Below the pieces are notes generated by a model. That model was not told where the DNA came from, did no database searches, and saw only the letters and a program-made list of their open reading frames with translations. 64,000 nt of DNA, from positions 17,586 to 81,585 of IMG/VR virus record IMGVR_UViG_3300045988_156148. One strand, written 5' to 3'. Both the position numbers and the translations under genes were made by a program. Origin of the DNA: a virus. Positions 1 through 60,144 of this stretch are shown piece after piece (within the stretch, counting starts at the first letter, position 1; the number at the start of each line of letters is the position of its first letter).

Positions 1-3000
1 CTTATTGATTACAGTGGTAATGGCAGAGATATTCAAATGAATAATCTAGCTTGGAAAGGCGGTAGTGGTATTGCAGCTAAACAATACGAAACATTTAAAG
101 ATTGGACTTCTGAATCTTCTTCAACTTCAATAATAACACAAATAGATGAATTTACTAGAATTGTAGAATCTACTACAAATGGTTATTGGGTAAGTAGAAT
201 AAGAAGAGATTCTGATTTAAATAAGGTATATGATGCTATAAATGTTTATCTTTATCAAGATAATAATTCCTTAGTACACGAATGTAAATATGAAGTAGAT
301 GGAATAAAGTATAGTATTCCTATAAATGAATCAGTTGGAAAAGGTTATCATAAGTTAGAAATGTATACTAAAGATAGATATACAGAACTTCCTGAAAATG
401 CAGAAAATGTTGTTCTATCAGAATGGTATTTTCCTAAGTCAACTAAAGGTTCTATAAAATATAGTATTATTCCTAGTTGTAAAGGCGGTATTCTATTAGA
501 CGGTATCAATGACTTCGGTAAGGTGACAGGGATGCCTGTTTACAAAGACTTTACGGTAGTAACCGATAGAGAAATGTTTGCTCATATTGGAGCTATATCG
601 TCAAAGAATAATCCAGGAGCATTTATTGAAACTGCTGGAAATAGTGTTTATAGTTTTGGTCAAGGTACTTCTGGTCTAAATTTTATTTCTACTAGAAGTA
701 TATCTTATTTATCTAAATACTCTTATTGCGGGCAATCTATAACAGCAGGTGCAGCAGAAGATGGCACTGATATGTGGTTAGGAACAATTCGAGATAATGA
801 TTCTCGTTTCTTAAATGGAACTATCTACTCTCTCATGTCTTTCCCATATAGTATGTCCGAGTTCTTGATAGAGCGTCAGTTGAAGAAGCACAAGCTGGGT
901 ACGCTGTATCCGGATATGGTGGAGTTTAGACCTGTTATAAAGAGTAACGTTTTATTAGATGCTAAGCCAACATTCGTTATTCGTGGTACTAGTACTTATC
1001 TAAATGCAGGAGATTATGTTCCTGAAAATAGTCAAATATGGGTAAGTATTAAGATGAATAACATTGCCGATAGAATAACTAAGTTTACTGTTAATGGCAA
1101 AACTATTGATATTCCTGAAAATGCTTATAGTGAAGTCACATTGCAATATGGTTTCCCTTTTGTAATAGATAAGTCTCCACAAAAGATTAGCATAACTATT
1201 GAACAGGATGAAAACTACGTCAAATTTGAACCTGTTATTACAAGTAATGTAGAATATGTTAGGTTAGATTTTTATTTAAATAATTATCAAAAGAGAATTA
1301 ATATAGGCGATTATATACCCAAAGATGCTTATCTTAGAGCCAATCTTTATCTAAAAAATAATGTTGATGAACTTACAGTATTTACATTTAACGGAGTAAA
1401 TATTGGTTATAGAAGAAGTTCCGTTGATGATACGGCTTTTAATATTAGCCAAATATATAATTATGACTCTCCACAAGAAGTAAATATTACTATTGACGAG
1501 TACATCAGATACGAGGACATTGTACAACCTTATCCGGTTCTATTGAGATTCAACGATGAAAACGGTAATGAAGTATCTTGGGGAGACAAAATAAAAGTAG
1601 GTTCCAGTATTACTAGAATAGGTTCTGCCGCTGATTCTAATCTACTTCCTAATATATATAATATATTTGGATTATTATTGAATGACAATCAAGTAACTAG
1701 TTCTAAAGTTATTGTTGAAAAAACAATGGTATTTAAGGCTAAAAGTGCTTATATATTTGACAACAATGAACCGAAAGTAATTTTATCTCCTAGCAGGTTA
1801 AGAATACCTAACCCTAGTTATAAGATACTAGGTCATATCCCCGATATATCCGGTCATGGTAATCATGGAGTTATTCATAACTCGGCTTATGCAGGAGCGA
1901 GCGGAGCCAATGGTTATCCTTATGATTATAATAACTCTAGTTTTTGGTGTGATAGTATTCTGGCAAAAGTTGTAAGTGGAGAGCTAATAGAATATTTTGC
2001 AGTTAAAAACTCAACAGGATTTTCTAATATCACTAGTGGAGTTTATAAAGGAGAGATAAAAGTTACAGGTGTAACTAAAGCCATATCTGAAAACAAGATT
2101 TCACGACTAAGAATATATACTAACTCAACTACTGATAATGAATTAATTGATATTACACAAGACGGAAATTATAACATAGATATAAAAGGCGTTGGTGATG
2201 CTAATCGTGTATTCTTTTATGCTATTCCTAATAATCCAAATGAATCTATTGTCGTACGTTTAACTGAACCTATTTATATAGAACAAGTGGGTGAATACGA
2301 AGGAGCATACTGTCTTGATGGCGTGGACGACTTTGTTGCTATTCCTACTGTTACCGGTGGTAAACAAGTGCTGATGAAAGTGAATTGGCAAAGTGAGGTA
2401 GGAGCTGTGACATTATACGACCAAAGGCTTAATCTACCTGATTATGAATTTGCTATCTATAACGGTACGAGAGACCTCGATGACAATCCTGTTATAGCTT
2501 ATCAGGGAAGAAACAATGGACAAACATATATTGATGGAATCTTGAATAGTAATATTATGGCTTCGGAATTGAAGGCTATTACTCATAATATAACTATTAC
2601 AAATGAGTTGAGTTTGGGAACAAATAATACCTATCCTGTTATTGGTTCAACTAGGTCGAATACTCACTTCGCTCAAATGTCCCTCTACGACTTCATGCTC
2701 TTCGACAACATCTCAACAGACGACAAGATTAAAGAGCTGAATGAGTATGTAGGTATTGAAGCTAAGGTAGAATTACCACCTTATTATTGGGATGCTTATG
2801 GCAAAACCAATCTTGATGCAGATAAGGCAACTATTCAACAAAGAGGTGTAGCCGTAGGTGATTATGATTTGATTAATAATAACTTTGCTTATGAAGGCAT
2901 GTCAGGTTATAATGGTTATCCTGTTGTGTTTGGTGCTAGTAAAACTTGGGCGAATGAATCTAACGGATATGTTAGTAGTATTACTAGTAATACTATTCAT

Positions 3001-3798
3001 ATTACTAATGTTCTAAATGCAGGTTTAGCTTTATTATATTCTTATGTTAAATATAATGGTAATCTTCAAAATATAAAAGAAATACCTCCTTTTAAGATTG
3101 AAATTAAAGGGTTAGAAGGTAGGTCTAAATTTATATATAAGTATTTAGCAACAAGCGATGCAACTAAGGAAACAAATCTATATCTTGGGAATGGTACTCA
3201 TGAACTACCCAAATCGTTCCTTCCGACAGAGGCTTTGGTTAATGATGCTGTGGTAGGTTTTTCAATAAGTCCAATTGAAGAAGGAGTTACCAATTTTTTA
3301 AGTGATATTACTATTGAAGTTCTTCCTGAATATGAAAATGGTTTAGCTTATGATGGAATAACTGATTATAGCAAGAATGCTAATATTCCTGTGCTTACAG
3401 ATTATACTTATATTTATAAAAGAACTATTATAAATATCCCGATTAATGCAGCAACTTTGTTAAAGGGTGCTGATAAAACTAGTGGCGGTGCATTTATTGC
3501 TGATTATGGAAATAAATGGCAATTTAATTTTGGTCAATATAATATTATACAAGGTATAGCTGATGGAATAAATTGGCAAACTGTCAATAGCTTTAATGGG
3601 ACTTCTATTAATAAGGGGGAGAATACTGATGATAGTGGAATTACAGTAGCTAAATTTAGTAATGGATATACCAGTATGGTATTCTACAAACTAATCCTCT
3701 ATCCGAAAACCATATCGTTACTAGAGATTAACTTCCTAAAGAACCTGATGGAGAAAGACGAAATAATTGATTTAAATAATAAAATATTTATACAATAA
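1..3798 (+). CDS. Large modular tail fibre / receptor-binding protein; 5' end probably lies outside the window
   Basis: ORF from ATG 37, but the frame is open to nt 1 (LIDYSGNGRDIQ), which matches internal motifs (DISGHGNHG.., NFAYEGMSGYNGY). Three LamG/concanavalin-like modules each open with xDGxxDF/Y (LLDGINDF, CLDGVDDF, AYDGITDY) and close with YSLMSF / LYDFMLF / FYKLILY. There are also tandem ~95-aa beta-sandwich repeats (PVIxSNV..GDYxP..FTxNG..SPQxxxITI). Confidence 0.75.
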   Translation, partial: LIDYSGNGRDIQMNNLAWKGGSGIAAKQYETFKDWTSESSSTSIITQIDEFTRIVESTTNGYWVSRIRRDSDLNKVYDAINVYLYQDNNSLVHECKYEVDGIKYSIPINESVGKGYHKLEMYTKDRYTELPENAENVVLSEWYFPKSTKGSIKYSIIPSCKGGILLDGINDFGKVTGMPVYKDFTVVTDREMFAHIGAISSKNNPGAFIETAGNSVYSFGQGTSGLNFISTRSISYLSKYSYCGQSITAGAAEDGTDMWLGTIRDNDSRFLNGTIYSLMSFPYSMSEFLIERQLKKHKLGTLYPDMVEFRPVIKSNVLLDAKPTFVIRGTSTYLNAGDYVPENSQIWVSIKMNNIADRITKFTVNGKTIDIPENAYSEVTLQYGFPFVIDKSPQKISITIEQDENYVKFEPVITSNVEYVRLDFYLNNYQKRINIGDYIPKDAYLRANLYLKNNVDELTVFTFNGVNIGYRRSSVDDTAFNISQIYNYDSPQEVNITIDEYIRYEDIVQPYPVLLRFNDENGNEVSWGDKIKVGSSITRIGSAADSNLLPNIYNIFGLLLNDNQVTSSKVIVEKTMVFKAKSAYIFDNNEPKVILSPSRLRIPNPSYKILGHIPDISGHGNHGVIHNSAYAGASGANGYPYDYNNSSFWCDSILAKVVSGELIEYFAVKNSTGFSNITSGVYKGEIKVTGVTKAISENKISRLRIYTNSTTDNELIDITQDGNYNIDIKGVGDANRVFFYAIPNNPNESIVVRLTEPIYIEQVGEYEGAYCLDGVDDFVAIPTVTGGKQVLMKVNWQSEVGAVTLYDQRLNLPDYEFAIYNGTRDLDDNPVIAYQGRNNGQTYIDGILNSNIMASELKAITHNITITNELSLGTNNTYPVIGSTRSNTHFAQMSLYDFMLFDNISTDDKIKELNEYVGIEAKVELPPYYWDAYGKTNLDADKATIQQRGVAVGDYDLINNNFAYEGMSGYNGYPVVFGASKTWANESNGYVSSITSNTIHITNVLNAGLALLYSYVKYNGNLQNIKEIPPFKIEIKGLEGRSKFIYKYLATSDATKETNLYLGNGTHELPKSFLPTEALVNDAVVGFSISPIEEGVTNFLSDITIEVLPEYENGLAYDGITDYSKNANIPVLTDYTYIYKRTIINIPINAATLLKGADKTSGGAFIADYGNKWQFNFGQYNIIQGIADGINWQTVNSFNGTSINKGENTDDSGITVAKFSNGYTSMVFYKLILYPKTISLLEINFLKNLMEKDEIIDLNNKIFIQ

Positions 3799-3799
3799 A

Positions 3800-4096
3800 A
3801 TGAAAAAGTTAATTGAAAAAATAAAAGCTTGGTATAAAGAAAGCAATAGAGATAAGCACTCATACGTGGGTGCTATCATCTATTGTACTTTTTTTGTAGT
3901 AGGTTTTGCATTAGGGATAGAACTTATTCCTAATGCTGTTATCGCTACAGGAGCTACAGTAGCTTCTATGATGTCAGCTGAATATAAAGACAAGGAACAT
4001 GGCTCTTTGTTTGATTGGCTAGATATTCTTGCGGGTATGACATATCCTATACTGATTGATATTGTTTGTTTAATTATTTACTTAATTATAAAATAA
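3800..4096 (+). CDS. Small membrane protein (2-3 predicted TM segments), holin-like size
   Basis: 98 aa with hydrophobic stretches (YVGAIIYCTFFVVGFALGIELI, ILAGMTYPILIDIVCLIIYLII). Starts 2 nt after the upstream stop. Confidence 0.5.
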   Translation: MKKLIEKIKAWYKESNRDKHSYVGAIIYCTFFVVGFALGIELIPNAVIATGATVASMMSAEYKDKEHGSLFDWLDILAGMTYPILIDIVCLIIYLIIK

Positions 4097-4097
4097 G

Positions 4098-4454
4098 ATG
4101 AAATATATTGTATTACCAAAATCCGTTTTAGACGAAGTTCCACAAGAGACGTTAAATGAGTTGCATTTAGTACCTAGAGTAAGCACAGATGGGGAATCTG
4201 TATTAATGAAAGTCGCAAATTACGAATTACTTTTCCCTCTTGCTGTAACTCTTCCTGAACTAGGAGAAGATACTCCTGTTGAACCAATATATCCATATCC
4301 TACTTATGAAGGAGATGCCCTAAATACTTTATTGCAAAGTAGCGAATGGACTAGTCAAGATAATTCTGTTTTAGGCGAATCTATTCTTGAATCTCCAACG
4401 GTGAAAACTACTTCTTCTAAAACAAGAAAGAGTACAAAAAATACCGTGTTATAA
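4098..4454 (+). CDS. Hypothetical protein
   Basis: Tightly packed co-directional ORF. No motif recognised. Confidence 0.5.
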   Translation: MKYIVLPKSVLDEVPQETLNELHLVPRVSTDGESVLMKVANYELLFPLAVTLPELGEDTPVEPIYPYPTYEGDALNTLLQSSEWTSQDNSVLGESILESPTVKTTSSKTRKSTKNTVL

Positions 4455-5003: not shown

Positions 5004-8000
5004 ATGGTAGAAAAGTTACTTATATATACTGATGATGAGGAATTAGGCGTTATATCTTTCCCTAAAGATGGAACGCAAGCTGCCCTTAGTAGTTATACAT
5101 TCACCGAGGGAAGAATGGGTAGCGTAAATATAAGTAGCAGTCCCATGTATCCTAAGTGCTTGGATGATGAATGGACGCAGAGGGAATTTGTGGAATTTAG
5201 GGGAGAAAGATATTGGATTTTAGATACACCTACTTCATCTAAGTCAAATACAGATCTAAGATATAAACATGAGCTTGTATTTAAATCCGATAGAACTAAA
5301 CTGGATAATACTTATTTCTTTGATGTAGTATCTCCTGATGCAGGTGATGTAGACCAATTTGTCAGCAATAGTACAAAGTTCACCTTCTTTGGAGATATTG
5401 CAGAGTTTGCAACAAGATTGAATTACTCTTTACAATACAGTGGAGTAGGTTATTCTGTTGTAATTGACGAAGGTATATCCTCCGAAGCTAAACTAATGTC
5501 GTTTGAGGACAAGTATTTTAGTGAAGTTCTACAAGAAGTATTTAATGTTTATGAACTACCTTATTATTTTGTCGGTAAGGTAATCCATATCGGATTTACT
5601 AATAATGCTATTACTCATACATTTAAATACGGTTATGATAGGGAACTACTGACAATAACCAAAACAAACGCAAACTATAAAATAGTTAATCGCTGTACAG
5701 GTATCGGTAGTACTGAAAATATTCCTTATTACTATCCAAATGATACAAGAAAAGGAGATGTCAGGGCTGTTGCCGGAGAAGATAATATCTCAATTAAAAC
5801 AGAAGATATACAAATCGTAAATAACGATTTATATAAAGAGAAGGTTTCATTGGAAGAAAAGGTTGAATTTAAAAAAACTAAGCTTCCTATTACTACTCAA
5901 TTATACATTAATTTAAATGAGCAATACCCTTATACACAAGCGGTAGAGACTGTTCCTACTATTAGAGATGGAGCTACAGCGAATTTTAAATGGTTTGAAA
6001 CGTCTTATAATTATTATGCAATAATAGATTTATCTAATGAAGCTACTATTTATTTAACTTTAAAATTATGGGCTAACTTAAAATATTCCTATATACAAAA
6101 GGGCGGTATTATATTGGGAGAAAAGCAAGCTGCAAGAAAAATGAATTTTGCTTCATTTTCTTTATATAAAAGAAATGAATCAGATACAGATTGGGTTTTA
6201 ATTAAAGCCGACCAAAAGTCTGAAACGACAGTATCGTTTAATCTTAATGAAGGAACAAATAAATTAAAAATAGTAGGTTCTTATTCTACCTTAGTAAATG
6301 TTAGTGATTATTATGTATATGGGAATCAAAAAGCTTTTCTTGAAATAAGTAGAGAATCAACAGCAGAATATAACTTATGGAGTTATAAAGATAATACTGT
6401 TAGTCTTAGCGATATTGGTATATATATTACAAAAACACCTTCTATTGGAGATTACTTTGTTCAAAAGCAAGTTGAAGGGAATTATATGATTACTTCTCCT
6501 AATCTATTGCCATCTATATACAGAGAGACGTTTGGTGCAGAACGATTCTATGACGCAAAAAACCAAACCTATATAAATCCTGATACAGAAAGCTACTACG
6601 ACTTCGAGAACCCTTATACGGAAGGTAATCCTAAGGAAATGATTGTTTCTTTTGATTATATCAAGCCGACTATCAAAGGAATTGAGAATGCAGCAGGATA
6701 TAAAATAGGAGAAATATTAGATGTAGCTTTTGATGATGATGATAATGATGAAATAGACCCTAACACAAATGAATACGAACATAAATATTTCTACATAAAG
6801 CTAAGAAAGTTTGATGGGGATTATGGCTTTAATCTCTTTGACCAAGCTATCGTAGGTAGTGATATGACCATCTCAATGACGAGTGGTAATTGTGCTGCTT
6901 GTAATTTTGTCATATCCGTATTAGAAGTAGAAGATAAAGACAATAATATCACAATATTCAAGAATCCTGTACAAGTGGATTCTAGTGGCAATATTGTAAC
7001 AGGTAGTGAGGATGATAAATGGAATGAGGCAAATATTCAGCCTCAACAACAAGATACAACCACAAATGAGGTATGGATTAGGGTAAGCAAAGATGATGAT
7101 ACATTCGGAGTTGTAATGCCATCTAACAACCGCAACTATAAGCCTAAATCAGGAGATTCGTTTGTTCTGTTACATATTGATTTGCCTAAACAATATATCC
7201 TTAATGCAGAGAATGAGCTTAAAGAAGCTATCATTAAGTATATGGCTGCCAATAATAGTGAAAAATTCAACTTCTCTATTAACTTTAAGCGTACATTCTT
7301 TGCTGAATATCCTGAAATGCTTTCACAGATTGATGCTAATGCACGATTGCAGATAGAGTATAACAACAAGCTGTATGAACTGTATGTCAGTCAATACACT
7401 TATAAGGTAAATGAGACAGACCCTCTTCCTGAAATTACGGTAGAATTATCCGATACCATAACGATACGTAAAGGTAATGTCCAAAAATCTATTGATGCTG
7501 TAAAACAGGATATTATGTCGTCTATCGGTTCTATCGACTTTTTAAAGATGGGACTGAAATACTTTATTAGAAAAGATGTTGATGATACAGCTAACGGACA
7601 TATAATATTTAAAGACGGGATTTATGTTACTGGGAATAGCGAGGAAGGAGCTACCGATTTCCTGTGTGAAGGTGGCATAGATAATATTCAAGAGGGTAAC
7701 GGAGATTTCATACAGGAAGATTCCGGGATTATCAAAGCTGTAGAAATTCCTCAAACTCTTGGTAGTTTATATAATGTCAATCCTATTGTAGATGAGATTG
7801 CTACAGAAGATGTCGTACTTGTAAAAAAAGTTGGTTCTACGAAATGGACGCGGGAAAGAAAGAGTATGACAGAAGGCATAACTGATGCCCCAAGCAATAA
7901 CATCTTATATGGTCGTAAAAACAAAGAGTGGATTAAAGTTCCTGGCACTCCGACAAAACTTCCTAATCCTAATGCTCTTTCTTTTACAGGTGCAATACAA

Positions 8001-8729
8001 GCTATATATGATGGTTCTGCACCAATTACAGTTAACATACCGACAGGTGGCGGTGGTAGCATAACAATAGACGACCACTTGGATTTAAATTCAACAAATG
8101 CAGTGCAAAATAAAGTTGTAACTATGAATATAAATGAATTAATGGACGAGGTATTTAAAATTTCGTTCGATACTTTTGTTGGCGGAGGAACTTTTGAAAA
8201 GGGATCAGTTGTTACTCCGTATATTTTTTGGTCTATTTTATATAAAGATGAAGAAGTTGTACCAACAACTGCAACTGTAAATGGGAGCACGGAAGGAGTT
8301 AATGAGGAGAAATCCAAATATTCGTCTCCTACTACAATTACTACAGATAAAAATTATAAAGTGATTTGTACTTACGGAAGCCAATCTATTGAAAAAACAG
8401 CAAACTATATTTTTTCTTTGAAAAAGTATTGGGGCGCATCTTCTGTAACTGAATTGACCAATGGTGATGTGATGTTAATGAATAACGGATGGGCTAGTCG
8501 TACTATGGGGAAAACGACTTTTGATTGTACAGGTGGGAAATATATTTATTACATTATACCGTTTGATATTTATGGAGAAGGCGTTAGTTTTTGGATAAAC
8601 GGTTTCAAGAATACCGATGTTATTGTCTATGATATGGAAATAACAAATGGTAAAAATGTAACTGAAACATACAAAGTAATGCGTCTAAATAACATTCAGA
8701 CGGGAATTTTAGAAGTTGAATTTAAATAA
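5004..8729 (+). CDS. Large tail-tip / baseplate structural protein (Tal-like or fibre-like)
   Basis: 1241-aa ORF in the fibre module. The N-terminus resembles siphovirus tail-tip proteins, with a GGGG linker and beta-rich C-terminal domains. Antisense ORFs inside it are judged spurious. Confidence 0.65.
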   Translation: MVEKLLIYTDDEELGVISFPKDGTQAALSSYTFTEGRMGSVNISSSPMYPKCLDDEWTQREFVEFRGERYWILDTPTSSKSNTDLRYKHELVFKSDRTKLDNTYFFDVVSPDAGDVDQFVSNSTKFTFFGDIAEFATRLNYSLQYSGVGYSVVIDEGISSEAKLMSFEDKYFSEVLQEVFNVYELPYYFVGKVIHIGFTNNAITHTFKYGYDRELLTITKTNANYKIVNRCTGIGSTENIPYYYPNDTRKGDVRAVAGEDNISIKTEDIQIVNNDLYKEKVSLEEKVEFKKTKLPITTQLYINLNEQYPYTQAVETVPTIRDGATANFKWFETSYNYYAIIDLSNEATIYLTLKLWANLKYSYIQKGGIILGEKQAARKMNFASFSLYKRNESDTDWVLIKADQKSETTVSFNLNEGTNKLKIVGSYSTLVNVSDYYVYGNQKAFLEISRESTAEYNLWSYKDNTVSLSDIGIYITKTPSIGDYFVQKQVEGNYMITSPNLLPSIYRETFGAERFYDAKNQTYINPDTESYYDFENPYTEGNPKEMIVSFDYIKPTIKGIENAAGYKIGEILDVAFDDDDNDEIDPNTNEYEHKYFYIKLRKFDGDYGFNLFDQAIVGSDMTISMTSGNCAACNFVISVLEVEDKDNNITIFKNPVQVDSSGNIVTGSEDDKWNEANIQPQQQDTTTNEVWIRVSKDDDTFGVVMPSNNRNYKPKSGDSFVLLHIDLPKQYILNAENELKEAIIKYMAANNSEKFNFSINFKRTFFAEYPEMLSQIDANARLQIEYNNKLYELYVSQYTYKVNETDPLPEITVELSDTITIRKGNVQKSIDAVKQDIMSSIGSIDFLKMGLKYFIRKDVDDTANGHIIFKDGIYVTGNSEEGATDFLCEGGIDNIQEGNGDFIQEDSGIIKAVEIPQTLGSLYNVNPIVDEIATEDVVLVKKVGSTKWTRERKSMTEGITDAPSNNILYGRKNKEWIKVPGTPTKLPNPNALSFTGAIQAIYDGSAPITVNIPTGGGGSITIDDHLDLNSTNAVQNKVVTMNINELMDEVFKISFDTFVGGGTFEKGSVVTPYIFWSILYKDEEVVPTTATVNGSTEGVNEEKSKYSSPTTITTDKNYKVICTYGSQSIEKTANYIFSLKKYWGASSVTELTNGDVMLMNNGWASRTMGKTTFDCTGGKYIYYIIPFDIYGEGVSFWINGFKNTDVIVYDMEITNGKNVTETYKVMRLNNIQTGILEVEFK

Positions 8730-8779
8730 TTATTTACAAATGGGGGGGCAAAATCGCTCTCTCTCCAAAATATAATCTT

Positions 8780-9358
8780 ATGGCAGAAATCAAAGGTACA
8801 AATGTTGCATCTAAAATAGTTCCCTATACTGATTCAGACGAATATGCTACTCATGACGAAAAATATGGTGTAGGAGGATATAGAACAGTAGATAGTGTAA
8901 GCGAGATGAATGCTATTCCTGCTGCAAGAAGAAAAGAAGGAATGCTAGTAAATGTAAAAGGGGATAAAATTTACAAGCTTAACAGTAGTAATACGTTTGT
9001 TAATGCTGGACTTGGAGTTGGTGAAGTAACTGATTGGAATTCAGGCTCAAATCTCTCTCAAAACGGTTATCAAAAGTTTAGTAATGGGCTGATGATTCAG
9101 TGGGGGACAAGAGCCGGAGCAACCAGGGGGGCAATTAATCTGTATTTTCCTACCAGTTTCTATAATACTGATTATAACATTTATTTCACTGGGGCAGTAA
9201 ATAATACAAGTGAATCTTTTATATATGCTCCGGGGTATGACCTTAATGGTAAATATACATCATATTGTAGAGTTCTCACCCGTGGAATAAATTCAACTCC
9301 GGCTATTGTTTGGACTAGCTGGAATTTTACATGGTTAGCTATAGGACGTTGGAAGTAA
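8780..9358 (+). CDS. Tail fibre protein with exchangeable C-terminal receptor-binding domain
   Basis: 192 aa. The C-terminal domain starts at NGYQKFSNGLMIQWG, a motif typical of fibre C-terminal domains. Inverted-repeat copy IR-L lies at this domain boundary. Confidence 0.7.
   Translation: MAEIKGTNVASKIVPYTDSDEYATHDEKYGVGGYRTVDSVSEMNAIPAARRKEGMLVNVKGDKIYKLNSSNTFVNAGLGVGEVTDWNSGSNLSQNGYQKFSNGLMIQWGTRAGATRGAINLYFPTSFYNTDYNIYFTGAVNNTSESFIYAPGYDLNGKYTSYCRVLTRGINSTPAIVWTSWNFTWLAIGRWK
9056..9078 (+). repeat. IR-L of a 23-bp perfect inverted repeat
   Basis: TCTCAAAACGGTTATCAAAAGTT, read directly from the sequence. Its exact reverse complement is at 9486-9508. Confidence 0.9.
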
Positions 9359-9469
9359 CTATTTCCATCTACCTATTGCAATCCAATTATAAGCTTCTCC
9401 GGCAATAGTCCCATACTGTATAGATTTTATAATAAAGGCAGTAATCACTAAAGTTACACCACGCTGATT
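9359..9469 (-). pseudogene. Remnant of an alternative tail-fibre C-terminus (Sv'-like)
   Basis: The minus strand reads NQRGVTLVITAFIIKSIQYGTIAGEAYNWIAIGRWK*. Its end parallels FTWLAIGRWK* of CDS 8780..9358. It is in frame with IR-R but separated from it by three stops. Confidence 0.45.
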
Positions 9470-9485
9470 TTACAAATTTCATTAT

Positions 9486-9508
9486 AACTTTTGATAACCG
9501 TTTTGAGA
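9486..9508 (-). repeat. IR-R of the 23-bp perfect inverted repeat
   Basis: The forward strand reads AACTTTTGATAACCGTTTTGAGA, which is the reverse complement of 9056-9078. Confidence 0.9.
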
Positions 9509-9549
9509 TAGATTTGAAAATTAATTATTAAATTTACAAAAAAAAAGAC

Positions 9550-10077
9550 ATGAAATACTGGAAGCAAGGATTTTACGATGAACCAATAGAGGGTTCGGTA
9601 GAAATAACAGACGAATATTGGCAATCATTACTTGATGGGCAAAGCGATGGAAAGGAGATAGTAGAAGATGTAAATGGTCGTCCTATCCTTCAAGAACACA
9701 TATTTACTTTAGAAGAAGTAAAAGAGCATACATTATACAATATTCAGAGGTACGATAAATCTGAATATGTAAATAGTTTCTTGCTCAATGGAGATAGTAT
9801 TTGGTTAAGCAAAGATTTACGAACTTCCATAATGAATGCTGTTGCGATTAAAAAGAGCAGAAACATTAAAACATCAAGTATTTGGTATAATCAGAAAGAG
9901 TATGTTCTCCCTGTTGATTTTATATTAGATATGTTAGATGATGTGGAGATATACGCTGATACTTGTAATAGCGTTACACAAAGACATATCGCAAATGTTA
10001 TGGCTATGACAGATATAGATGAAATTAATAATTATGACTATACTTTAAATTATCCAACTAAAGTGAACTACCCATGA
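9550..10077 (+). CDS. Tail-fibre assembly / chaperone-like protein (DUF4376-like C-terminus)
   Basis: The N-terminus MKYWKQGFYDEPIEG..YWQSLLDGQSDGKEI resembles tail-fibre assembly proteins, and the gene sits right after a fibre gene. Its last codons (VNYP) and stop come from the IS right end. Confidence 0.5.
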   Translation: MKYWKQGFYDEPIEGSVEITDEYWQSLLDGQSDGKEIVEDVNGRPILQEHIFTLEEVKEHTLYNIQRYDKSEYVNSFLLNGDSIWLSKDLRTSIMNAVAIKKSRNIKTSSIWYNQKEYVLPVDFILDMLDDVEIYADTCNSVTQRHIANVMAMTDIDEINNYDYTLNYPTKVNYP

Positions 10078-10200
10078 GCTAAAAGCTCATGGGTTTCGTG
10101 GGCTGCGCAAGTAACCTCGCTCATATCTCCACACGCGTAAATTTCGGTCGTTCCAACCGTATTTATGTTCCGAAAAGCAAATCTCTTGATGTTATTAGCT
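10063..10200 (-). ncRNA. Putative omega-RNA (reRNA) scaffold overlapping the tnpB 3' end and the right end
   Basis: In known TnpB systems the guide RNA derives from the tnpB 3' end plus the right end. Two hairpins are present here, and the last 71 nt are conserved in an orphan copy at 37406-37476. The 5' extent is unknown. Confidence 0.4.
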
Positions 10201-11267
10201 GCAAGGAAATCTCTATCGTGAATTGAGCCACATTCTGGGCAAGTCCATTCACGCATGGCGAGTGTTAGGTTGTGATTAATATATCCGCAAGTACACATTT
10301 TAGAACTTGGTTCAAAGCGACCAATACGAAGAATATTAACTCCTCGCTCTTTTGCCTTGTATTCTAACAGTGTATTGAATGTTCCTATGGCAATATCCGA
10401 TAGTGATTGCGCAAGGTGGTGGTTCTTTATCATCCCTTTTACATTCAAGTCCTCAAGACAGATTGTATCATAGTTATTCACAAGATATGATGTAACCTTA
10501 TGCAAGAAGTCATTTCTTCTATTAGTTACTTGCTCATGCGCTAAAGCCAATTTTCTTCTTGCTTTACCTCTATTCTTAGAACCTTTTGTCTTGTGCAACA
10601 AAGAGCGTTGAAGTTTCTTGACTTTATCAAGTGATTGTTTTAGATGTTTAGGATTAGGTATTTCAGTACCATCTGAAAGGACAGCAAATGTTTTAATCCC
10701 AAGGTCTATACCAACTGCTTTGTTCTCACAAATTGGTTTCATAGATACATCGGGTTCATCCACTTCCACAAGGATAGATATGAAATACTTACCTGTTGAT
10801 GTTCTTGTAATAGTAGAAGTTTTAACTATACCATCAAAGGTGCGATGTAATATTGCTTTAATTCCACTTTTGAATTTAGGAATGAATATTCTTCCATTCT
10901 CGAAATCAACCTTTGTATTTTGAGGTATAGAAAAACTTTGCTTGCTATCTTTTTTTGATTTGAATCTTGGAAAGCCTTTATGCTCCCTAAAGAACCTAGC
11001 GTAGGCAGAATCAAGATTAGCAAGCGATGCTTGAAGGGAAAGCGAATTGACTTCTTTTAGCCAACAATACTCATCTGACTTTTTCATATTCGGCAGATCT
11101 GCTTGAATATCGAAGCGAGAAAGATTAGTTTTATCAGTTTGAAAAGCCTTCACTTTCTTAGCAAGAGCATAATTATAGATGAAACGACAAGAACCAAGAT
11201 GCTTTGCTATAAGCACCTTTTGCTCCTCATTCGGATATAATCTATATTTATATGCTCTATATTTCAT
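10068..11267 (-). CDS. tnpB: RNA-guided endonuclease TnpB (IS605 OrfB family), apparently intact
   Basis: Starts MKYRAYKYRLYPNEEQ at the internal ATG 11267; the longer ORF to 11354 is an upstream extension. RuvC-I GIDLGIK, RuvC-II CLEDLN, zinc finger CTCG..CPECG and RuvC-III HDRDFLAANNI are all present. Confidence 0.9.
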   Translation of the reverse strand: MKYRAYKYRLYPNEEQKVLIAKHLGSCRFIYNYALAKKVKAFQTDKTNLSRFDIQADLPNMKKSDEYCWLKEVNSLSLQASLANLDSAYARFFREHKGFPRFKSKKDSKQSFSIPQNTKVDFENGRIFIPKFKSGIKAILHRTFDGIVKTSTITRTSTGKYFISILVEVDEPDVSMKPICENKAVGIDLGIKTFAVLSDGTEIPNPKHLKQSLDKVKKLQRSLLHKTKGSKNRGKARRKLALAHEQVTNRRNDFLHKVTSYLVNNYDTICLEDLNVKGMIKNHHLAQSLSDIAIGTFNTLLEYKAKERGVNILRIGRFEPSSKMCTCGYINHNLTLAMREWTCPECGSIHDRDFLAANNIKRFAFRNINTVGTTEIYACGDMSEVTCAAHETHELLAHG

Positions 11268-11271
11268 ACCA

Positions 11272-11279
11272 CAAAGATA
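11272..11279 (-). promoter_or_regulatory. -7 box TATCTTTG, 4 nt upstream of the tnpB ATG (near-leaderless)
   Basis: The forward strand reads caaagata. The same TATCTTTGTG..ATG arrangement is found at the second tnpB (60260-60274). Confidence 0.4.
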
Positions 11280-11417
11280 ATATAATTTAGCGAAACGCAA
11301 AAGAACTTCTAAAAATTTTGTGTTCACGAAAAAAAATGTACCTTTACAACGCAATTCATCCGCTTAAGTTAAAGACTTATGAGATTTCTTGCTATTTTTA
11401 TTTAAAAATTAATTACA

Positions 11418-11858
11418 ATGAAAAAAATATTTTATGATTCAAAGGTAGCTAAAGCTATTTTATTTGATGGTTATTCAACAATAACAATATTTGCTTGGGT
11501 ATTGACTGTATACAAGAAGTTGACACAAGAAACGATAAACCATGAATGTACTCATGCCAGACAGTGGATTGAACTTACTGTAGCAGGAGGATTATTTATG
11601 TGGCTTGGAATGCTAATATTTAATTATTCTGCATGGTATCTTGCTATTTCTCCGATTGTATTCTATTTATGGTATGGTTTAGAATATTGCATAAGAAGAA
11701 TTATGGGAATATTTGCTTCGGGTGGCAACAAACAACATACTGCATATCGTGAGGTGTCATTTGAACAAGAAGCTCGATTGGCTGAAAAAGATAATAATTA
11801 TCTTGAAAACAGCCATTATTATGCATGGACGAAGTTTATAATCAAAACTAGAAAGTAA
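11418..11858 (+). CDS. Membrane protein with HExxH-like motif
   Basis: NHECTHARQW motif plus 3-4 hydrophobic segments. Confidence 0.5.
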   Translation: MKKIFYDSKVAKAILFDGYSTITIFAWVLTVYKKLTQETINHECTHARQWIELTVAGGLFMWLGMLIFNYSAWYLAISPIVFYLWYGLEYCIRRIMGIFASGGNKQHTAYREVSFEQEARLAEKDNNYLENSHYYAWTKFIIKTRK

Positions 11859-11859
11859 T

Positions 11860-13857
11860 ATGGCAATTCTATCAAATGGTAAATTTTCAGGATTCCTGTG
11901 TTCCATAAGGGACACAGGTAAAAAACTAAAAGACGGTGCAGCCGTTATGGTTGAAGATTTTCTTTCCGGATTCAATGGATACGGATGGAAATTGTGGAAG
12001 AAAAGTAATCTTTGGAGACTTGAAATAGATGAGCTTCTTGTTCGCAAATCATTCACGACCTTTGAACATATCATATCACAAATAACTTCCATTAGGGGAG
12101 GGCAAACAATAAGTCAAGGTCACGCTAAAATAAAGGCTGTAACGACAATTGAAGCAGACGTATATAGGGAGAATGATGGAGAGGAAACTATCACCCAAGA
12201 GCAATGTTATCGCTTGGAAATAGACGATGAATCAAATTCTATTGTAGAATATGATTTTGTACAGTGTTTAAAAGGCAATAGACAATATTTGGTTCAAGTT
12301 GGAAGTGTCTTTCAATACTATATTAATATTCCTATAACCGAGTTTGATTCAGATGCAAAAGCAGGTGAAGTATTAAATGTTCCACAAGCAGGAGATGAAA
12401 TTGTTCAATTTGGGAATGCATCACACCAAGATAAATATAAAAACAGACATTCAGCCCTTTATCTCCATGTAGATGAGGATGAACCTGCTATAGATCTTAT
12501 GACCAACATGTATTCTAAAGATTGGTCTAATGCGATAAAAACTCGCATAGGAGGTAATCTTCCGGGAACAGATGGTGAAAGAGGTTTTTATAGTGTAAAC
12601 GGGAAAATAATATCTGTTGATGAAAACAATGATATAGTATATGAGATTAATCCTGATGGTTCAGGATATTTCGCTAGAGGAAAATTCTCATGGACTAAAG
12701 ATGGTTCTCCTAAATTTTCAGGGACTATTTTGTTGCAGATAGATAATAATAATGTTTGGGAAGTTACCGAAGCTGGCGAAAATATTATTGGGAACAAAGA
12801 TGGGAAAAGAATAGTAATAAGCCCTGTTAGTCAAGATATTAGAGTTTTTGATGATAGTAATAATAATGTCCTTTCTATCGAAGGTTCTAATAGAAATGAT
12901 ATAAGCGATTTTTTTGGTGGTACTCCTCCAACTATAACTATCAAGAATATCCCATTTTCTGTTGCTGCAACAGTTACAAGAGCGGAAATGACTGTTACAG
13001 AAGGATTTTATACTAGTACATTGATGAATCTTTCCGTAGAATTTAATTATAATTATTCACAATATTCAGAAAGTTCAGCTTCGGGTAACATTTCAGGAAC
13101 TCTATATCTTGATAATTTTTCAGATTCTTCTTATAGCAACTATCAGAATAGCAGTGTTATAGCATCATTTAATGTAGATGTTACGGGAACAGGAACTTTT
13201 GTTGTAAGAAATACTACTACTATAGAAAAAGGTTATCATACTCTTAGATTCCTTATATTAAAAGATAGATCTGTCACTAGTTTTTCAATCAGTTCTTTAA
13301 ATGTTGAATTTGTTATTGATTCTTATTTAGCTAGTTTATTTGCTAATGGTATTGTATTAGGTTCTTCTACAAACAATCTTTTTTATGCAATAAATAAACA
13401 ACCTAATCCATTGCTTAATATTAAAAATCTATTTTTTGGAGTTATGAATGATTTTTCAGGATTAAAAATAGATACATCGGGGTCTTACTCTAAAATAAAA
13501 GGTCATTGGGGACTTTTACCTTCATTAATTGCCTATGGCGTTGTGTGGGGTGGAAATACCCCTACTTATAAAGCTATAAAAACTTTTGATGGAAGTTCCT
13601 TTCCTGCTGCTACTCGAATAGGAGAAGGTGTTTATAGAATTAACTTTCCTACTTCATGGAGAAGTCTTAATATAAGCGCTACAAATGCATACGTTATGTT
13701 GACGGGAATAGGTTTTTCTATTGTAGATGGAGGAAGTAACGCTCCAATAAAAGCAACATTTAAACAATGGGTAACAAATGGATTTGATGTATGGCTATCA
13801 GATGATGCAACTGCTAATGATGGTGATTTTGCTTTTGAATTAAAATGGTTAGGATGA
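11860..13857 (+). CDS. Tail fibre / structural protein
   Basis: 665-aa beta-rich, Asn/Ser-rich ORF in the fibre module. Starts 2 nt after the upstream stop. Confidence 0.6.
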   Translation: MAILSNGKFSGFLCSIRDTGKKLKDGAAVMVEDFLSGFNGYGWKLWKKSNLWRLEIDELLVRKSFTTFEHIISQITSIRGGQTISQGHAKIKAVTTIEADVYRENDGEETITQEQCYRLEIDDESNSIVEYDFVQCLKGNRQYLVQVGSVFQYYINIPITEFDSDAKAGEVLNVPQAGDEIVQFGNASHQDKYKNRHSALYLHVDEDEPAIDLMTNMYSKDWSNAIKTRIGGNLPGTDGERGFYSVNGKIISVDENNDIVYEINPDGSGYFARGKFSWTKDGSPKFSGTILLQIDNNNVWEVTEAGENIIGNKDGKRIVISPVSQDIRVFDDSNNNVLSIEGSNRNDISDFFGGTPPTITIKNIPFSVAATVTRAEMTVTEGFYTSTLMNLSVEFNYNYSQYSESSASGNISGTLYLDNFSDSSYSNYQNSSVIASFNVDVTGTGTFVVRNTTTIEKGYHTLRFLILKDRSVTSFSISSLNVEFVIDSYLASLFANGIVLGSSTNNLFYAINKQPNPLLNIKNLFFGVMNDFSGLKIDTSGSYSKIKGHWGLLPSLIAYGVVWGGNTPTYKAIKTFDGSSFPAATRIGEGVYRINFPTSWRSLNISATNAYVMLTGIGFSIVDGGSNAPIKATFKQWVTNGFDVWLSDDATANDGDFAFELKWLG

Positions 13858-13862
13858 CAATA

Positions 13863-13890
13863 AAGGGAGCTTAATTGCTCCCTTTTATTT
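13863..13890. terminator. Bidirectional intrinsic terminator between convergent genes
   Basis: AAGGGAGC-ttaatt-GCTCCCTT followed by TTATTT. An A-rich tract precedes it. Confidence 0.6.
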
Positions 13891-14371
13891 AGTACATCTT
13901 CTCCATATTGGAGAGTCTTGGTTTCTTATTCACTGCCTTATTTTGCTTATAAGGTTTTTCCTTTGCTTTCTTAGCTTTTTGTTCCGCTTCTAGCTCTGAT
14001 TTTAAAGCTAGGATTTCGGACTTCTTAAATCCTACTTTTTGATTCCTAAAAACTTGCTGCTTGATATTGTGTTTCTTCATTAAATTAGAGAAACCAACTC
14101 TATTAGAAGAATAACCCAATAGTCGCATTGCGCCATCGTAATTAAGAAAATCATCTTCTCGAACATATTCACTATTTACTTTTTCAATACTATTAATTGC
14201 TTGCGCTACATCATTCTCGCTGCAATCCTCTGAAAGTATATCTAACAGACGTGAAAATACTGTATCAAACAATATCTTCTTCAATCCACTAAGTTTACTT
14301 ACCTCTTCTTTTAAAAGATCGTATGCGTCTGCTTTTATTTTACTAATCTTATTGTTATTCTTCGTTACCAT
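13889..14371 (-). CDS. Hypothetical protein, possible DNA-binding
   Basis: 160 aa with a basic C-terminal tail. First gene of the leftward block reading from its own -7 box. Confidence 0.5.
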   Translation of the reverse strand: MVTKNNNKISKIKADAYDLLKEEVSKLSGLKKILFDTVFSRLLDILSEDCSENDVAQAINSIEKVNSEYVREDDFLNYDGAMRLLGYSSNRVGFSNLMKKHNIKQQVFRNQKVGFKKSEILALKSELEAEQKAKKAKEKPYKQNKAVNKKPRLSNMEKMY

Positions 14372-28718: not shown

Positions 28719-29837
28719 TTAATCATCCAACTTTTTCCAAATATATCCACCACACCTTTTTGTAATTCCCTTTATATTTTGCCATATACACGAATAGCGT
28801 ACACCTGTTGAGTTACTAGCACTTCTTATTCCATCATACTGTGCTATAAAAACGCCATTTAGGTCGTATTGTTCTATCTTAAAGTCATTAGGAAAATAAG
28901 CTCTTATCTCTTTTTTGTTTTTGATAGACTCTTTGACTGGCTTATTTTCACATTCAGACATTGGCTTATAGGTGTCACCAAGAACTTTTCCAATAGTCTC
29001 ATCGTAAGGCTCTATCTTTATGGGATAATCATCAGATACTTTCTTGTATAAAACATAACCATTTACGTATTTGCCATAAGGAATGTTATGGTTGCGGCTA
29101 AAAGACAAAGCTGCACGACGCTTACTCTCATATTCCCCACAAAAATTACCCTGTGAATCATACTTTAATGCATGAGGAACTACATGAGATACATACTCCT
29201 TCTCAACAACACGCCTTACTACCTCATTACGAACTATAGTGCGTGTGCGATTAATCACTTTATAACCAACAGGCTCTATGCGATCGGGAATATAACCATA
29301 CCTGCCTGTCTTGAAAATATACTTACCCTTGTATATCTTAGACTTGTCAAGATAACGAGATAATTCGTGATCTAATAAACCAATATCATAACAACAACGA
29401 CCCTTTGAATGATAGCTTTTTTGAAAATATCCATCTTTATCATAAACCAAAACTTGGCAAGAAGTACCATTAGTCTGAATATCTTCCACAGGAATACCCA
29501 ATATTTCACCTCCTATGCCGGAATTATAACCATTTGGGTGCAAAGTATCAAATTCACGAATATATTTTATCTCCAATATAGACAGACAAAGAAGAGTGTC
29601 TGATTTACACAAAGAAGAAATCTCGCAAATAACAGAAACATATACATTATCAATACCAAATTTACGTAATGCCAACATGTTCTTTGACGCATCGCCAAAA
29701 TTACGAGATAGTTGAGACTCATACAACTTCATACGATCATGAAGACATTTAGTCTGTCCAATATAACACTTACCATCAGGATAGGTCAGCTTATAAATAC
29801 AAGCACATTGCAAGTCCTTAGCTTCTTCAAATTTCAT
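28719..29837 (-). CDS. GIY-YIG homing endonuclease with repeated C-terminal DNA-binding modules
   Basis: CIYKLTYPDGKCYIGQT..(R)..NGYNS GIY-YIG core. Start taken at MKFEEAKD (ATG 29837) because the -7 box lies at 29854-29861. Three NUMOD/IENR-like repeats are present (YHSKGRCCYDIG, YESKRRAALSF, YDGIRSASNSTG). Confidence 0.8.
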   Translation of the reverse strand: MKFEEAKDLQCACIYKLTYPDGKCYIGQTKCLHDRMKLYESQLSRNFGDASKNMLALRKFGIDNVYVSVICEISSLCKSDTLLCLSILEIKYIREFDTLHPNGYNSGIGGEILGIPVEDIQTNGTSCQVLVYDKDGYFQKSYHSKGRCCYDIGLLDHELSRYLDKSKIYKGKYIFKTGRYGYIPDRIEPVGYKVINRTRTIVRNEVVRRVVEKEYVSHVVPHALKYDSQGNFCGEYESKRRAALSFSRNHNIPYGKYVNGYVLYKKVSDDYPIKIEPYDETIGKVLGDTYKPMSECENKPVKESIKNKKEIRAYFPNDFKIEQYDLNGVFIAQYDGIRSASNSTGVRYSCIWQNIKGITKRCGGYIWKKLDD

Positions 29838-29853
29838 ATAATATTCTTTTTTG

Positions 29854-29861
29854 CAAATATA
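29854..29861 (-). promoter_or_regulatory. -7 box TATATTTG (- strand), first promoter of the leftward block
   Basis: The forward strand reads caaatata, 17 nt upstream of ATG 29837. Confidence 0.5.
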
Positions 29862-29879
29862 CAAAAGAAAAAAATTTAA

Positions 29880-34526: not shown

Positions 34527-35099
34527 ATGAATAAGTTTGTTTCAAAACGTGGTGAGATATGGAAAGATATACCAAAATTTGAGGGCGTATATCAAATATC
34601 AAATTTGGGGCGTGCAAGAAGTTTGAAAAAGAATAGGATATACTTGTTAAAAAATAACATAGACACTAACGGATATTATTATATCATCCCATACGTAAAT
34701 AAAAAAACGTATACTCATTATAAAATACATAGATTAGTTGCATTATTGTTTGTAGACGGATATAAAGAAGGTTTAGTTGTTAACCATAAAGACGGTAATA
34801 AATTGAATAATAATGCATCTAACCTTGAATGGGTGACAAGTTCTTATAATAATAAACACGCTTTTGATATAGGACTCAAGAGGAAAGGAGTACACGAAAA
34901 TTGTAGAAAAGCTTGCATAGAAAAAACAAGCATTAAAGTTAAGTGTATCGACATTAATACGGGTGTAGAAAAAACATTCCGTTCAATGAAACAAGCTGCC
35001 AAAGAAATAGGCGGGACAGGTGCGGGTATTAAATATAGCATAAAGAATAATAAGCCATACAAAAAAAGATATTTATTTTATGAAATTTATATACGCTAG
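34527..35099 (+). CDS. HNH homing endonuclease (NUMOD4 + HNH_3 type)
   Basis: EIWKDIPKFEGVYQISNLGRARS..HRLVALLF..VNHKDGNKLNNNASNLEWVT. Paralog of 48437..49195. Confidence 0.8.
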   Translation: MNKFVSKRGEIWKDIPKFEGVYQISNLGRARSLKKNRIYLLKNNIDTNGYYYIIPYVNKKTYTHYKIHRLVALLFVDGYKEGLVVNHKDGNKLNNNASNLEWVTSSYNNKHAFDIGLKRKGVHENCRKACIEKTSIKVKCIDINTGVEKTFRSMKQAAKEIGGTGAGIKYSIKNNKPYKKRYLFYEIYIR

Positions 35100-35823
35100 A
35101 TGTTCAACGGAAAAACAAGACTTTGAACAACAAAAAGAATGTATAAAACAGTATTTGAAAAGAATAGGAGACAATTCAGATATTAAAGAAGTTGTAGAAA
35201 AAGTTTCAGGGACTATAAAACATACAAAACGAAAACTGCAAGAAGTATTAGAAATGTGCAAGAGTGGAGACACTATATATATATCTGAATTGTCTCGATT
35301 AGGTAGAAGTATGAATGATTTATTTTCTATTGTTTCTTATTGTGGAGAAAAAGATATAACTATAATACAATGCAAAGACGGAACTATAATAGAAAATAAA
35401 TCAATAGGTGGAAAAGCCCTTCTTTTTGCATTATCATTAGCCGCTGAAATTGAAGTAGAAAACATACGTCAGCGTACACGTATGGGACTAGCCGCAAGAA
35501 AAGCGAAAGGTATGCAAACAGGCGGAACAAATGAATTGTGGGGAAAGAATAGTTCTACAGATAGAATAGTTTCAATAAATAAGATGCACGATGAGTCCGC
35601 AAACAAAAGGCGAGAAAATGCACGTGTTAATGAAAGTAATGTGTTTTTTTGGGCTTTCATTACTGATTGGATAAAAGATAAGGGAGAGCCTAGAAACTAC
35701 GAAATTTGGGGAGATATTGCACAAAAATTGAATAATCTGAATCAAAAGACAGCTACAGGAATGGAATATAATTCAGTTCGTGCGGCTGCAATGTATCGTA
35801 AACTTAAAAAAATAATGAAATAA
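35080..35823 (+). CDS. Small serine recombinase (resolvase/invertase family)
   Basis: IYARCSTEKQ (catalytic Ser), GDTIYISELSRLGRS and ENIRQRTRMGLAARKAKG match the resolvase catalytic domain. A ~100-aa C-terminal region may contain an HTH. Confidence 0.8.
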   Translation: MKFIYARCSTEKQDFEQQKECIKQYLKRIGDNSDIKEVVEKVSGTIKHTKRKLQEVLEMCKSGDTIYISELSRLGRSMNDLFSIVSYCGEKDITIIQCKDGTIIENKSIGGKALLFALSLAAEIEVENIRQRTRMGLAARKAKGMQTGGTNELWGKNSSTDRIVSINKMHDESANKRRENARVNESNVFFWAFITDWIKDKGEPRNYEIWGDIAQKLNNLNQKTATGMEYNSVRAAAMYRKLKKIMK

Positions 35824-37246: not shown

Positions 37247-37381
37247 ATGACAGTACAAGAACTAATTGATATTTTATCTGAAATTAAAGATAAAAGCAAA
37301 CCTGTGACAATAGACATTTTGGATGATGAAGTGAAAGACGTCATAGAGCGTGAAGATTGTGTTGAACTTTATAATTATTGA
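37247..37381 (+). CDS. Small hypothetical protein (44 aa)
   Basis: MTVQELIDILSEIKDKSKPVTIDILDDEVKDV.. Falls below the track cutoff. Confidence 0.35.
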   Translation: MTVQELIDILSEIKDKSKPVTIDILDDEVKDVIEREDCVELYNY

Positions 37382-37405
37382 ATATGATAGTTGAAGCTTT
37401 AAGCT

Positions 37406-60134: not shown

Positions 60135-60144
60135 AAAAAACAGC

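Follow-up and report, generated by a model that had tools for sequence, protein, structure and literature searches.

Introduction

How can a nuclease gene that travels on a transposon without a transposase spread from one phage to another? Elements that carry tnpB alone are very common, and how they persist without a transposase is still debated. The question is raised by a locus in the tail-fibre module of a virus known from IMG/VR (record IMGVR_UViG_3300045988_156148), of which positions 17,586 to 81,585 were analysed, a stretch of 64,000 nucleotides that we refer to as the window. An earlier reading of this stretch (the original prediction) had placed here an intact tnpB-only insertion sequence (IS) that supplies the stop codon of a tail gene, and whose omega-RNA would carry the adjoining tail-gene sequence as its guide. 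Comparison with related phages makes it close to certain that positions 10063-11401 are an intact tnpB-only IS of the IS200/IS605 family with the anatomy described below. An explanation that joins this intact element, an omega-RNA and RNA-guided homing between co-infecting phages is, taken as a whole, probable in our judgement; RNA-guided homing by itself, which is deduced from population data, stands at roughly even odds.

The element is of an ordinary and well-known kind, and its added value is the natural allele series around it. The site is found empty, with or without the predicted target-adjacent motif (TAM), and occupied, on different backbones; a second, competing element and decayed remnants are also present. 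Together these matched natural alleles make TnpA-independent, RNA-guided homing between phages directly testable. IS605 has been reported to spread among plasmid copies by means of TnpB and independently of TnpA (bioRxiv 10.1101/2025.02.20.638934), and homing into co-infecting phages is listed as a theoretical possibility in a 2026 review (PMC13565253). No report of TnpB homing in phages was found in the literature searched; such homing has so far been shown only for engineered plasmids and is theoretical for phages.

Results

A complete tnpB-only insertion sequence lies between two tail-module genes

The boundaries of the element were determined by comparison with element-free phages and with 20 TnpB relatives (74-99% identical, from IMG/VR and one metagenome-assembled genome (MAG)). 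Labels such as L073 and P0006 denote contigs and protein clusters, respectively, of related phages in this comparison. In the empty-site alleles L073, L078, L115 and L136, the counterpart of position 10062 is joined directly to that of 11402, and nothing is duplicated or lost. A target-site scan of IMG/VR gave element-free alleles that read ...ccaactaaa followed by TTAAAATT... at this site. The IMG/VR empty sites thus read ccaactaaa and then TTAAAATTTAATTACAATGAAAAAAAT, and the window reads ccaactaaa, the element and then TTAAAAATTAATTACAATGAAAAAAAT, the native sequence ('ttaaaaattaattacaatgaaaaaaatattttatga') picking up again at 11402. On the tnpB strand the insertion point directly follows TTTAA, and in the tail gene it separates a Lys codon from a Leu codon. 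The right end at 10063 was as originally predicted: about 13 independent insertion contexts are conserved through ...GGGTAG-TTCAC and diverge straight after it. The left end had been put at 11390, and the empty sites move it 11 nt further out, to 11401. Left ends of the relatives are preceded by TTTAA (9 contexts) or TTTAG (4 contexts), so the element-free relatives and the relatives at other sites define both ends and the putative TAM. TTTAA is the target reported for IS605 (PMC13565253). A right end at 10068, suggested by the 'gtgaa' in the element-free L002 and L003, was ruled out, since the ~13 copies put TTCAC inside the element and the alleles with a TTA codon give a clean empty site. 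A right-end motif running on into unrelated flanks was looked for among the relatives and not found.

The ends are those of a member of the IS200/IS605 family. They carry neither terminal inverted repeats nor a target duplication, and hairpins of similar sequence lie near both ends, ~18 nt in from the left and 8 nt in from the right. Compensatory changes among the relatives were found in both hairpins, the right one having five compensatory pairs. The right hairpin CCCATGAGCT-TTT-AGCTCATGGG, which the original prediction had read on the coding strand, was located at 10094..10070 (-12.4 kcal/mol as DNA, z = -6.8) and is followed by TAG (10070..10068) and TTCAC (10067..10063). The left hairpin has 7-9 bp in relatives, with the compensatory arms CACAGG/CCTGTG, CCGAGG/CCTCGG and CACAAA/TTTGTG; the window copy has 5 contiguous pairs (-4.8 kcal/mol, z = -0.7). 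The lack of terminal inverted repeats and target duplication, the subterminal hairpins and the insertion 3' of a pentanucleotide are shared with the IS1341 group and with Helicobacter pylori IS605, from which the window element differs in that 20 of 20 relatives are tnpB-only and almost all of them lie on viral contigs.

No transposase accompanies the element, in agreement with the original prediction: no Y1/HUH TnpA was found among the 63 open reading frames (ORFs) of at least 100 aa in the window, and only 134 nt separate the left end from the ATG of tnpB, which leaves no room for a tnpA. A Y1 HUH TnpA is present in the IS200 and IS605 groups and absent by definition from the IS1341 group; the element was therefore assigned to the latter. 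An IS607-type arrangement involving the serine recombinase of the window was ruled out, as the catalytic motif of that protein is N-terminal as in resolvases and invertases and its gene is ~24 kb from either tnpB of the window. Members of the element family were found at no fewer than 13 distinct sites on viral contigs, so the family must be mobile. TnpB relatives were present in 432 phage records. A scan of GTDB genomes revealed neither a near-identical copy in bacteria nor a linked tnpA; the best matches, 76% and 74% identical, are in MAGs of Sphingobacteriaceae and Bacteroidales. A scan of JGI metagenome contigs with the right-end junction gave no match.

The insertion rewrites the 3' end of a tail-fibre-assembly-like gene

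The gene 9550..10077 ends K-V-N-Y-P-TGA, and its TGA (10075-10077) is within an arm of the right hairpin. V-N-Y-P and the stop come from the final 15 nt of the element, which read GTGAACTACCCATGA on the + strand, and replace 11 native C-terminal residues, as element-free alleles encode a 182-aa protein ending ...NYPTK(L/I/V)KFNY(Y/N)E(E/K)(S/N)IL. The ending ...NYPTKVNYP was found in the window and one other cluster (P0006) only, and L004, a contig of P0006, has the same tnpB in the same place. Element-free relatives natively ending in ...KVNYP, which would have argued against a rewritten gene, were looked for and not found. The idea that a real insertion had rewritten the 3' end of this gene was thus borne out, clean empty sites included.

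The displaced native end can still be read on the far side of the element. The remnant at 11402-11437 aligns without gaps with element-free alleles and has one mismatch to L073 in its first 19 nt. In L002 and L003, which have the 182-aa form, no tnpB intervenes and the next gene overlaps by 20 nt, whereas in the window both genes are held apart by the element. The insertion site is therefore the short overlap of the tail-fibre-assembly-like gene with the next gene. The N-terminus of the 9550..10077 product matches PHROG 188, a tail fibre assembly protein, and its phage homologues are annotated as DUF4376 or tail fibre assembly. For phage annotation, the element explains why the tail-fibre-assembly-like gene is truncated and why the tail module seems to have a gap of 1.3 kb. 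The element is carried by an uncultivated phage of the human gut, whose host is probably a member of the Bacteroidota. Megablast of positions 8000-13900 against GenBank phages found no close relative, and the label crAss-like, based on one tail gene at 46% identity, was not adopted.

The TnpB protein is intact and under purifying selection

The TnpB product matched the Pfam families PF12323 (HTH_OrfB_IS605), PF01385 (OrfB_IS605) and PF07282 (Cas12f1-like_TNB). Residues 3-365 aligned with the TnpB of Deinococcus radiodurans ISDra2 (8BF8/8EXA/8H1J; E = 2e-75), with ~40% identity. The catalytic residues D188, E272 and D353 align with D191, E278 and D361 of ISDra2 TnpB, and the zinc cysteines C325, C327, C343 and C346 with C331, C334, C351 and C354. 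The first zinc knuckle is C-x-C and not C-x-x-C. The 399-aa protein thus has all of the RuvC and zinc-finger residues claimed for it; it is intact at this level, and nuclease activity is predicted. The ratio of nonsynonymous to synonymous substitution rates (dN/dS) is 0.04-0.14 in the TnpB core, reflecting strong purifying selection. Over the last 30-34 codons, which coincide with the structured tail described below, dN/dS rises to 0.4-0.9 and the synonymous rate is lower.

The original prediction had also noted a -7 box only 4 nt from the ATG. The motif TAnnTTTG-N4-ATG is conserved in nearly all of the 20 relatives, and the motifs upstream of tnpB match the Bacteroidota -7/-33 promoter consensus (PMC7366714). 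In Bacteroides thetaiotaomicron, 5' untranslated regions shorter than 10 nt are rare (~3.7%), and transposase genes account for several of the few that exist (PMC7366714). With this precedent and the consensus match, a leaderless tnpB transcript is a reasonable suggestion. Synonymous diversity is also low in tnpB codons 1-35 (11267-11160), at 0.26-0.31 compared with 0.4-0.5 elsewhere, which may reflect a constraint from leaderless initiation or a function of the left end.

The tnpB 3' tail encodes a predicted omega-RNA that would take its guide from the tail gene

The last 230 nt of 14 distinct element copies were aligned, and their consensus fold contains four helices within the last ~100 nt, ending at the right end. 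In this 29-pair structure 98.5% of the cells are paired, compared with 31-40% when the partners are slid by 1-3 columns, and 12 of the 29 pairs have changes on both sides. Several pairs are G-U when read in the tnpB sense, whereas the opposite strand would have A-C mismatches there; the structure was therefore assigned to the tnpB-sense strand. The window sequence alone gave a minimum-energy fold with identical helices (z = -4.1). Synonymous diversity drops from 0.4-0.5 to 0.14-0.19 in codons 371-395, where helix 1 begins. The TAG before TTCAC is kept even where the ORF of a relative ends earlier. The tnpB stop is only 5 nt from the right end, so nearly the whole RNA scaffold is inside the coding sequence.

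Both the structure and the synonymous constraint are as expected of an omega-RNA, and we infer that the structured 3' tail of tnpB is one, at the location originally predicted; by the same reasoning TTTAGTTGGATAATTTAAAG would serve as its guide. This 20-mer is the exact reverse complement of 10043-10062, directly follows the conserved right end and occurs once only in the window. A covariance model built from the right-end RNA scored its own locus at 133.6 bits. The covariance search with known RNA models that the original prediction had called for was negative, Rfam giving chance matches only in 9000-12500 at E <= 10. The arrangement resembles that of ISDra2 TnpB and its omega-RNA (reRNA), in which a structured RNA overlaps the tnpB 3' end, stops at the right end and uses the flank as guide (here predicted). 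Unlike ISDra2, the window element has no adjacent tnpA, carries a scaffold almost wholly in coding sequence that no Rfam model recognises, and has a TAM deduced as TTTAA/G in place of TTGAT. A compact 399-aa TnpB with a ~110-nt scaffold, a TTTAA/G TAM of this kind and a Bacteroidota-type promoter may serve genome editing in Bacteroidota or their phages.

Near-identical elements occur on diverged phage backbones

The elements in the window and in L004 are 99.1-99.8% identical, whereas the flanking genes are 72-90% identical. Beside the right end 100 nt are 97% identical, and the left flank falls to 86% at once. Three distinct element-bearing backbones were examined, and the haplotype of the last ~90 nt on the guide side is common to all of them (the window, L004 and L005/L041); further upstream the sequences split into two backbones, one of the window and another of L004 and L005. 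On the guide side the linked tract is 91-155 nt long; beyond the left end it is no longer than 39 nt, L004 being back to its own backbone within 6-39 nt. Since TnpB would break the DNA inside the guide-matching flank, homing would be expected to leave the longer tract on that side. A second group, formed by L044, L045 and L046 (element at ~2895-4202 in each), carries a 91%-identical relative at one shared site; here the element is 99.9-100% identical and the adjacent 100 nt are 90-98% identical.

The original prediction had proposed element-free copies of the locus as targets, and such copies exist: L073, L078, L115 and L136 have TTTAA followed by a perfect 20/20 guide match, and three more TTTAA alleles match at 15/20. 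In 17 element-free or type-2-bearing loci (type 2 is a second tnpB element, described below), the TAM position reads TTTAA in 7, TTTAT in 5, TTCAA in 2 and TTCAC in 3. The non-TTTAA alleles encode Ile (TTTAT), Leu by a TTG codon (TTCAA) or Val (TTCAC). The Val allele (GTG AAA) puts TTCAC before the guide-matching 20-mer (L002 5513-5517, L003 2564-2568, L080 ~6336-6340). This is the same sequence as at the right-end junction of the element itself; a nuclease that spares itself must therefore spare the Val allele, and genomes with this allele should be immune to TnpB and its RNA. If the locus does act as a drive, the TAM variation of element-free alleles may reflect resistance. The Val allele was also considered as a footprint of element loss by microhomology deletion, which was ruled out because L002, L003 and L080 carry the element-free flank haplotype.

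A model of RNA-guided homing and its alternatives

We propose that the omega-RNA reads through into the flank, so that TTTAGTTGGATAATTTAAAG would become the guide, and that TnpB with this RNA would cut element-free copies of the locus reading TTTAA plus the 20-mer. The right-end junction of the element itself (TTCAC plus the 20-mer) would be spared. During co-infection with a related element-free phage, the break would be repaired from the element-bearing genome, possibly drawing on RecT/SbcC-type functions of the phage itself, whose genes include one for RecT (49185-50069) and one for an SbcC-like protein. Repair would copy the element together with a short guide-side tract, amounting to a TnpA-independent 'non-restorative homing' or gene drive. 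Jumps to new sites would require a Y1 TnpA from the host acting in trans, since the phage encodes none. The closest precedent is the IS605 plasmid gene drive (Mears et al., bioRxiv 10.1101/2025.02.20.638934; 'transposon non-restorative homing', PMC13565253), in which an element-bearing replicon likewise converts element-free copies in a manner that depends on TnpB and guide and needs no TnpA; that was an experiment with engineered plasmids, whereas the present case consists of comparative evidence from natural phage genomes. The homing endonucleases of T4-like phages (SegF, SegB, Mob; co-conversion and localized marker exclusion) offer a second parallel: a nuclease gene between conserved phage genes, present or absent among relatives, with a short linked flank. 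In contrast to these, the target in the window would be set by an RNA copied from the flank and not by protein-DNA contacts, and the transposon ends are retained.

Several observations weigh against homing. The TAM is deduced from ~13 left-end flanks. Element-bearing alleles are a minority, the exact allele of the window being on 8 contigs and that of P0006 on 1, compared with more than 80 contigs for element-free alleles. L145, which is element-free, carries most of the linked haplotype, and only two single-nucleotide polymorphisms (SNPs), which lie 25 and 28 nt from the site, are restricted to genomes with the element. The guide flank of L044-L046 is polymorphic from nt 8 (clusters at nt 8-10 and 16-17), which simple cut-and-copy does not predict. 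The region is mosaic even among element-free phages, L084 combining a window-type upstream gene with an L073-type downstream gene, so ordinary recombination could have moved the element and its flanks. An element-free genome matching L004 or L041 on both sides, the proof of a short conversion patch, was not found. The window copy may also no longer be excisable, as its left hairpin is weak.

These features invite the view that the element is a passive passenger, inserted once, immobile without TnpA and inherited vertically, on backbones that came to differ through constant tail-fibre recombination, with no role of TnpB and its RNA in spread. The absence of tnpA from the window, the weak left hairpin, the recombination breakpoints at the gene junction in element-free genomes, the haplotype of L145 and the lack of a two-sided match to L004 or L041 would all fit. 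We nevertheless regard it as unlikely. Purifying selection on TnpB and compensatory changes in the RNA indicate ongoing function; similarity between genomes is ~10-25 percentage points higher within the element than in the sequence flanking it and drops sharply at or near the element ends; the second phage group shows the same pattern; and at least 13 sites are occupied by the family.

That mobility could instead account for the pattern without break repair, if a host TnpA acting in trans repeatedly placed near-identical copies into the same preferred TTTAA site. The family clearly transposes (~13 sites), and an aberrant-excision-like remnant in the window (37403-37476) and a 50-nt mini element in L144 suggest TnpA-type processing. 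The guide-proximal flanks of L044-L046 differ despite identical elements, and the same 36-nt junction has also been hit by a second, unrelated tnpB element. Independent insertions, however, would not carry along the flank SNPs within 25-90 nt of the right end that are shared across two backbones, and the repeated choice of one among the many TTTAA sites of a phage genome needs further explanation; we consider this route quite improbable. It is very doubtful that TnpB has been domesticated as a weapon or regulator, kept to destroy competing phages (marker exclusion) or to repress the tail-fibre operon, with element spread secondary. Such a role would suit a guide that targets conserved tail-module sequence found in many related phages, and a tnpB and RNA that run antisense to the transcript of the tail gene; an advantage of this sort over competitors is known for phage homing endonucleases (reviewed in PMC13565253). 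However, the catalytic D-E-D triad is intact, in contrast to that of the nuclease-dead repressors known to derive from TnpB, the transposon ends are retained, and only a minority of related phages has the element. Exclusion and RNA-guided homing can, moreover, coexist.

Other selfish elements at the tail-module junction and elsewhere in the window

The features of the locus and of the rest of the window are listed in Table 1. The covariance model of the right-end RNA gave a second strong match at 37363-37476 (75.7 bits), which includes a 74-nt remnant of a right end. At the same site, L144 (470-525) has a 50-nt mini element that consists of the start of the left end, a single hairpin and TAGTTCAC. 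The point where the window remnant starts is preceded, in L048 and other close relatives, by an internal TTCAC that follows helix 1 and mimics a right end; this TTCAC may mark aberrant excision by TnpA.

Table 1. Coordinates of the element, its surroundings and other features of the window.
Feature	Position	Strand	Remarks
Tail-fibre-assembly-like (DUF4376-type) gene	9550..10077	+	175 aa instead of 182 aa; 3' end rewritten
Predicted 20-nt guide TTTAGTTGGATAATTTAAAG	10043..10062	-	flank 3' of right end; antisense to last native codons of gene 9550-10077
tnpB-only insertion sequence, complete ('type 1')	10063..11401	-	1,339 bp; IS200/IS605 family, IS1341 group
Predicted omega-RNA scaffold	10063..10174	-	helix 1 10159-10145; helices 2+3 10135-10097; helix 4 (terminal hairpin) 10094-10070; TAG-TTCAC
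tnpB coding sequence	10068..11267 (11267..10068)	-	399 aa from ATG, TAG stop
Promoter-like motifs, Bacteroidota type	11272..11301	-	TTTG 11301-11298, 18-nt spacer, TATCTTTG 11279-11272, 4 nt, ATG
Left-end subterminal hairpin	11361..11383	-	weakened in window copy
TTTAA target motif (putative TAM)	11402..11406 (11406-11402 on tnpB strand)	-	directly 5' of left end, outside element
Orphaned native C-terminal coding remnant	11402..11437	+	L-K-I-N-Y-N-E-K-N-I-L-stop; overlaps next gene start (ATG 11418)
Downstream gene, 146 aa	11418..11858	+	HExxH motif; PHROG 15610 'protease'
NUMOD1-only ORF	28719-29864		
Small serine recombinase, resolvase/invertase type	35080-35823		YARCSTEKQ at residues 4-12; not adjacent to any tnpB
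Right-end / omega-RNA remnant, 74 nt	37403-37476	+	directly after TTTAA (region 37398-37476); helices 2-4 intact; intergenic
HNH_3/NUMOD4/NUMOD1 gene	48437-49195		directly upstream of and overlapping RecT (49185-50069)
Second HNH gene	52492-53736		C-terminal resolvase-like part
Second tnpB, 'type 2', truncated	60135-61155 (ORF 60272-61195)	+	24% identical to type 1 TnpB

The type 2 tnpB of the window is cut off after residue ~295 of 377 and is without zinc finger and RuvC-III. On the left it is bordered by TTCAT, in reverse complement the start codon of a small gene on the minus strand. Intact copies with 96.8% identity to it are present in L121 (290-1565) and L080 (6340-7398), where type 2 occupies the same 36-nt gene junction as the type 1 element of the window. 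In L080 it lies between TTCAT and TGTAATT, 16 nt from the type 1 site. In L121 a further 16-nt deletion brings the right end of type 2 beside the same TTTAGTTGG flank, and the tail gene ends K-V-N-Y-S-Q-A-K-D-L-stop, V-N-Y again being read from the element end. The ends of the two types are alike (10063-10100 and 11361-11401 compared with 60135-60190 and L121 1530-1565), both having hairpins with TCTTTAG loops and the termini being TAGTTCAC and TAGTTTAC, respectively. Such similar ends on elements whose TnpBs are 24% identical suggest that similar TnpA transposases mobilise elements with different nuclease cargo. We hold only tentatively, as possible but somewhat doubtful, the fuller reading in which the locus is a natural RNA-guided gene drive between phages, built on an element unable to transpose alone and with a second tnpB element competing for the same 36-nt junction.

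The phage lineage has clearly been colonised repeatedly by tnpB elements, mostly at tail-module gene ends. Its HNH and NUMOD genes, one of which overlaps RecT, resemble free-standing homing endonuclease genes of the classical type, and the phage is thus predicted to host selfish nucleases of two kinds, protein-guided and RNA-guided. A third tnpB (395 aa) was observed in L002 (716-1990), a relative otherwise 99.7% identical, directly after the stop of the large tail-fibre gene; it is followed there by an extra fibre-like gene that the window does not have.

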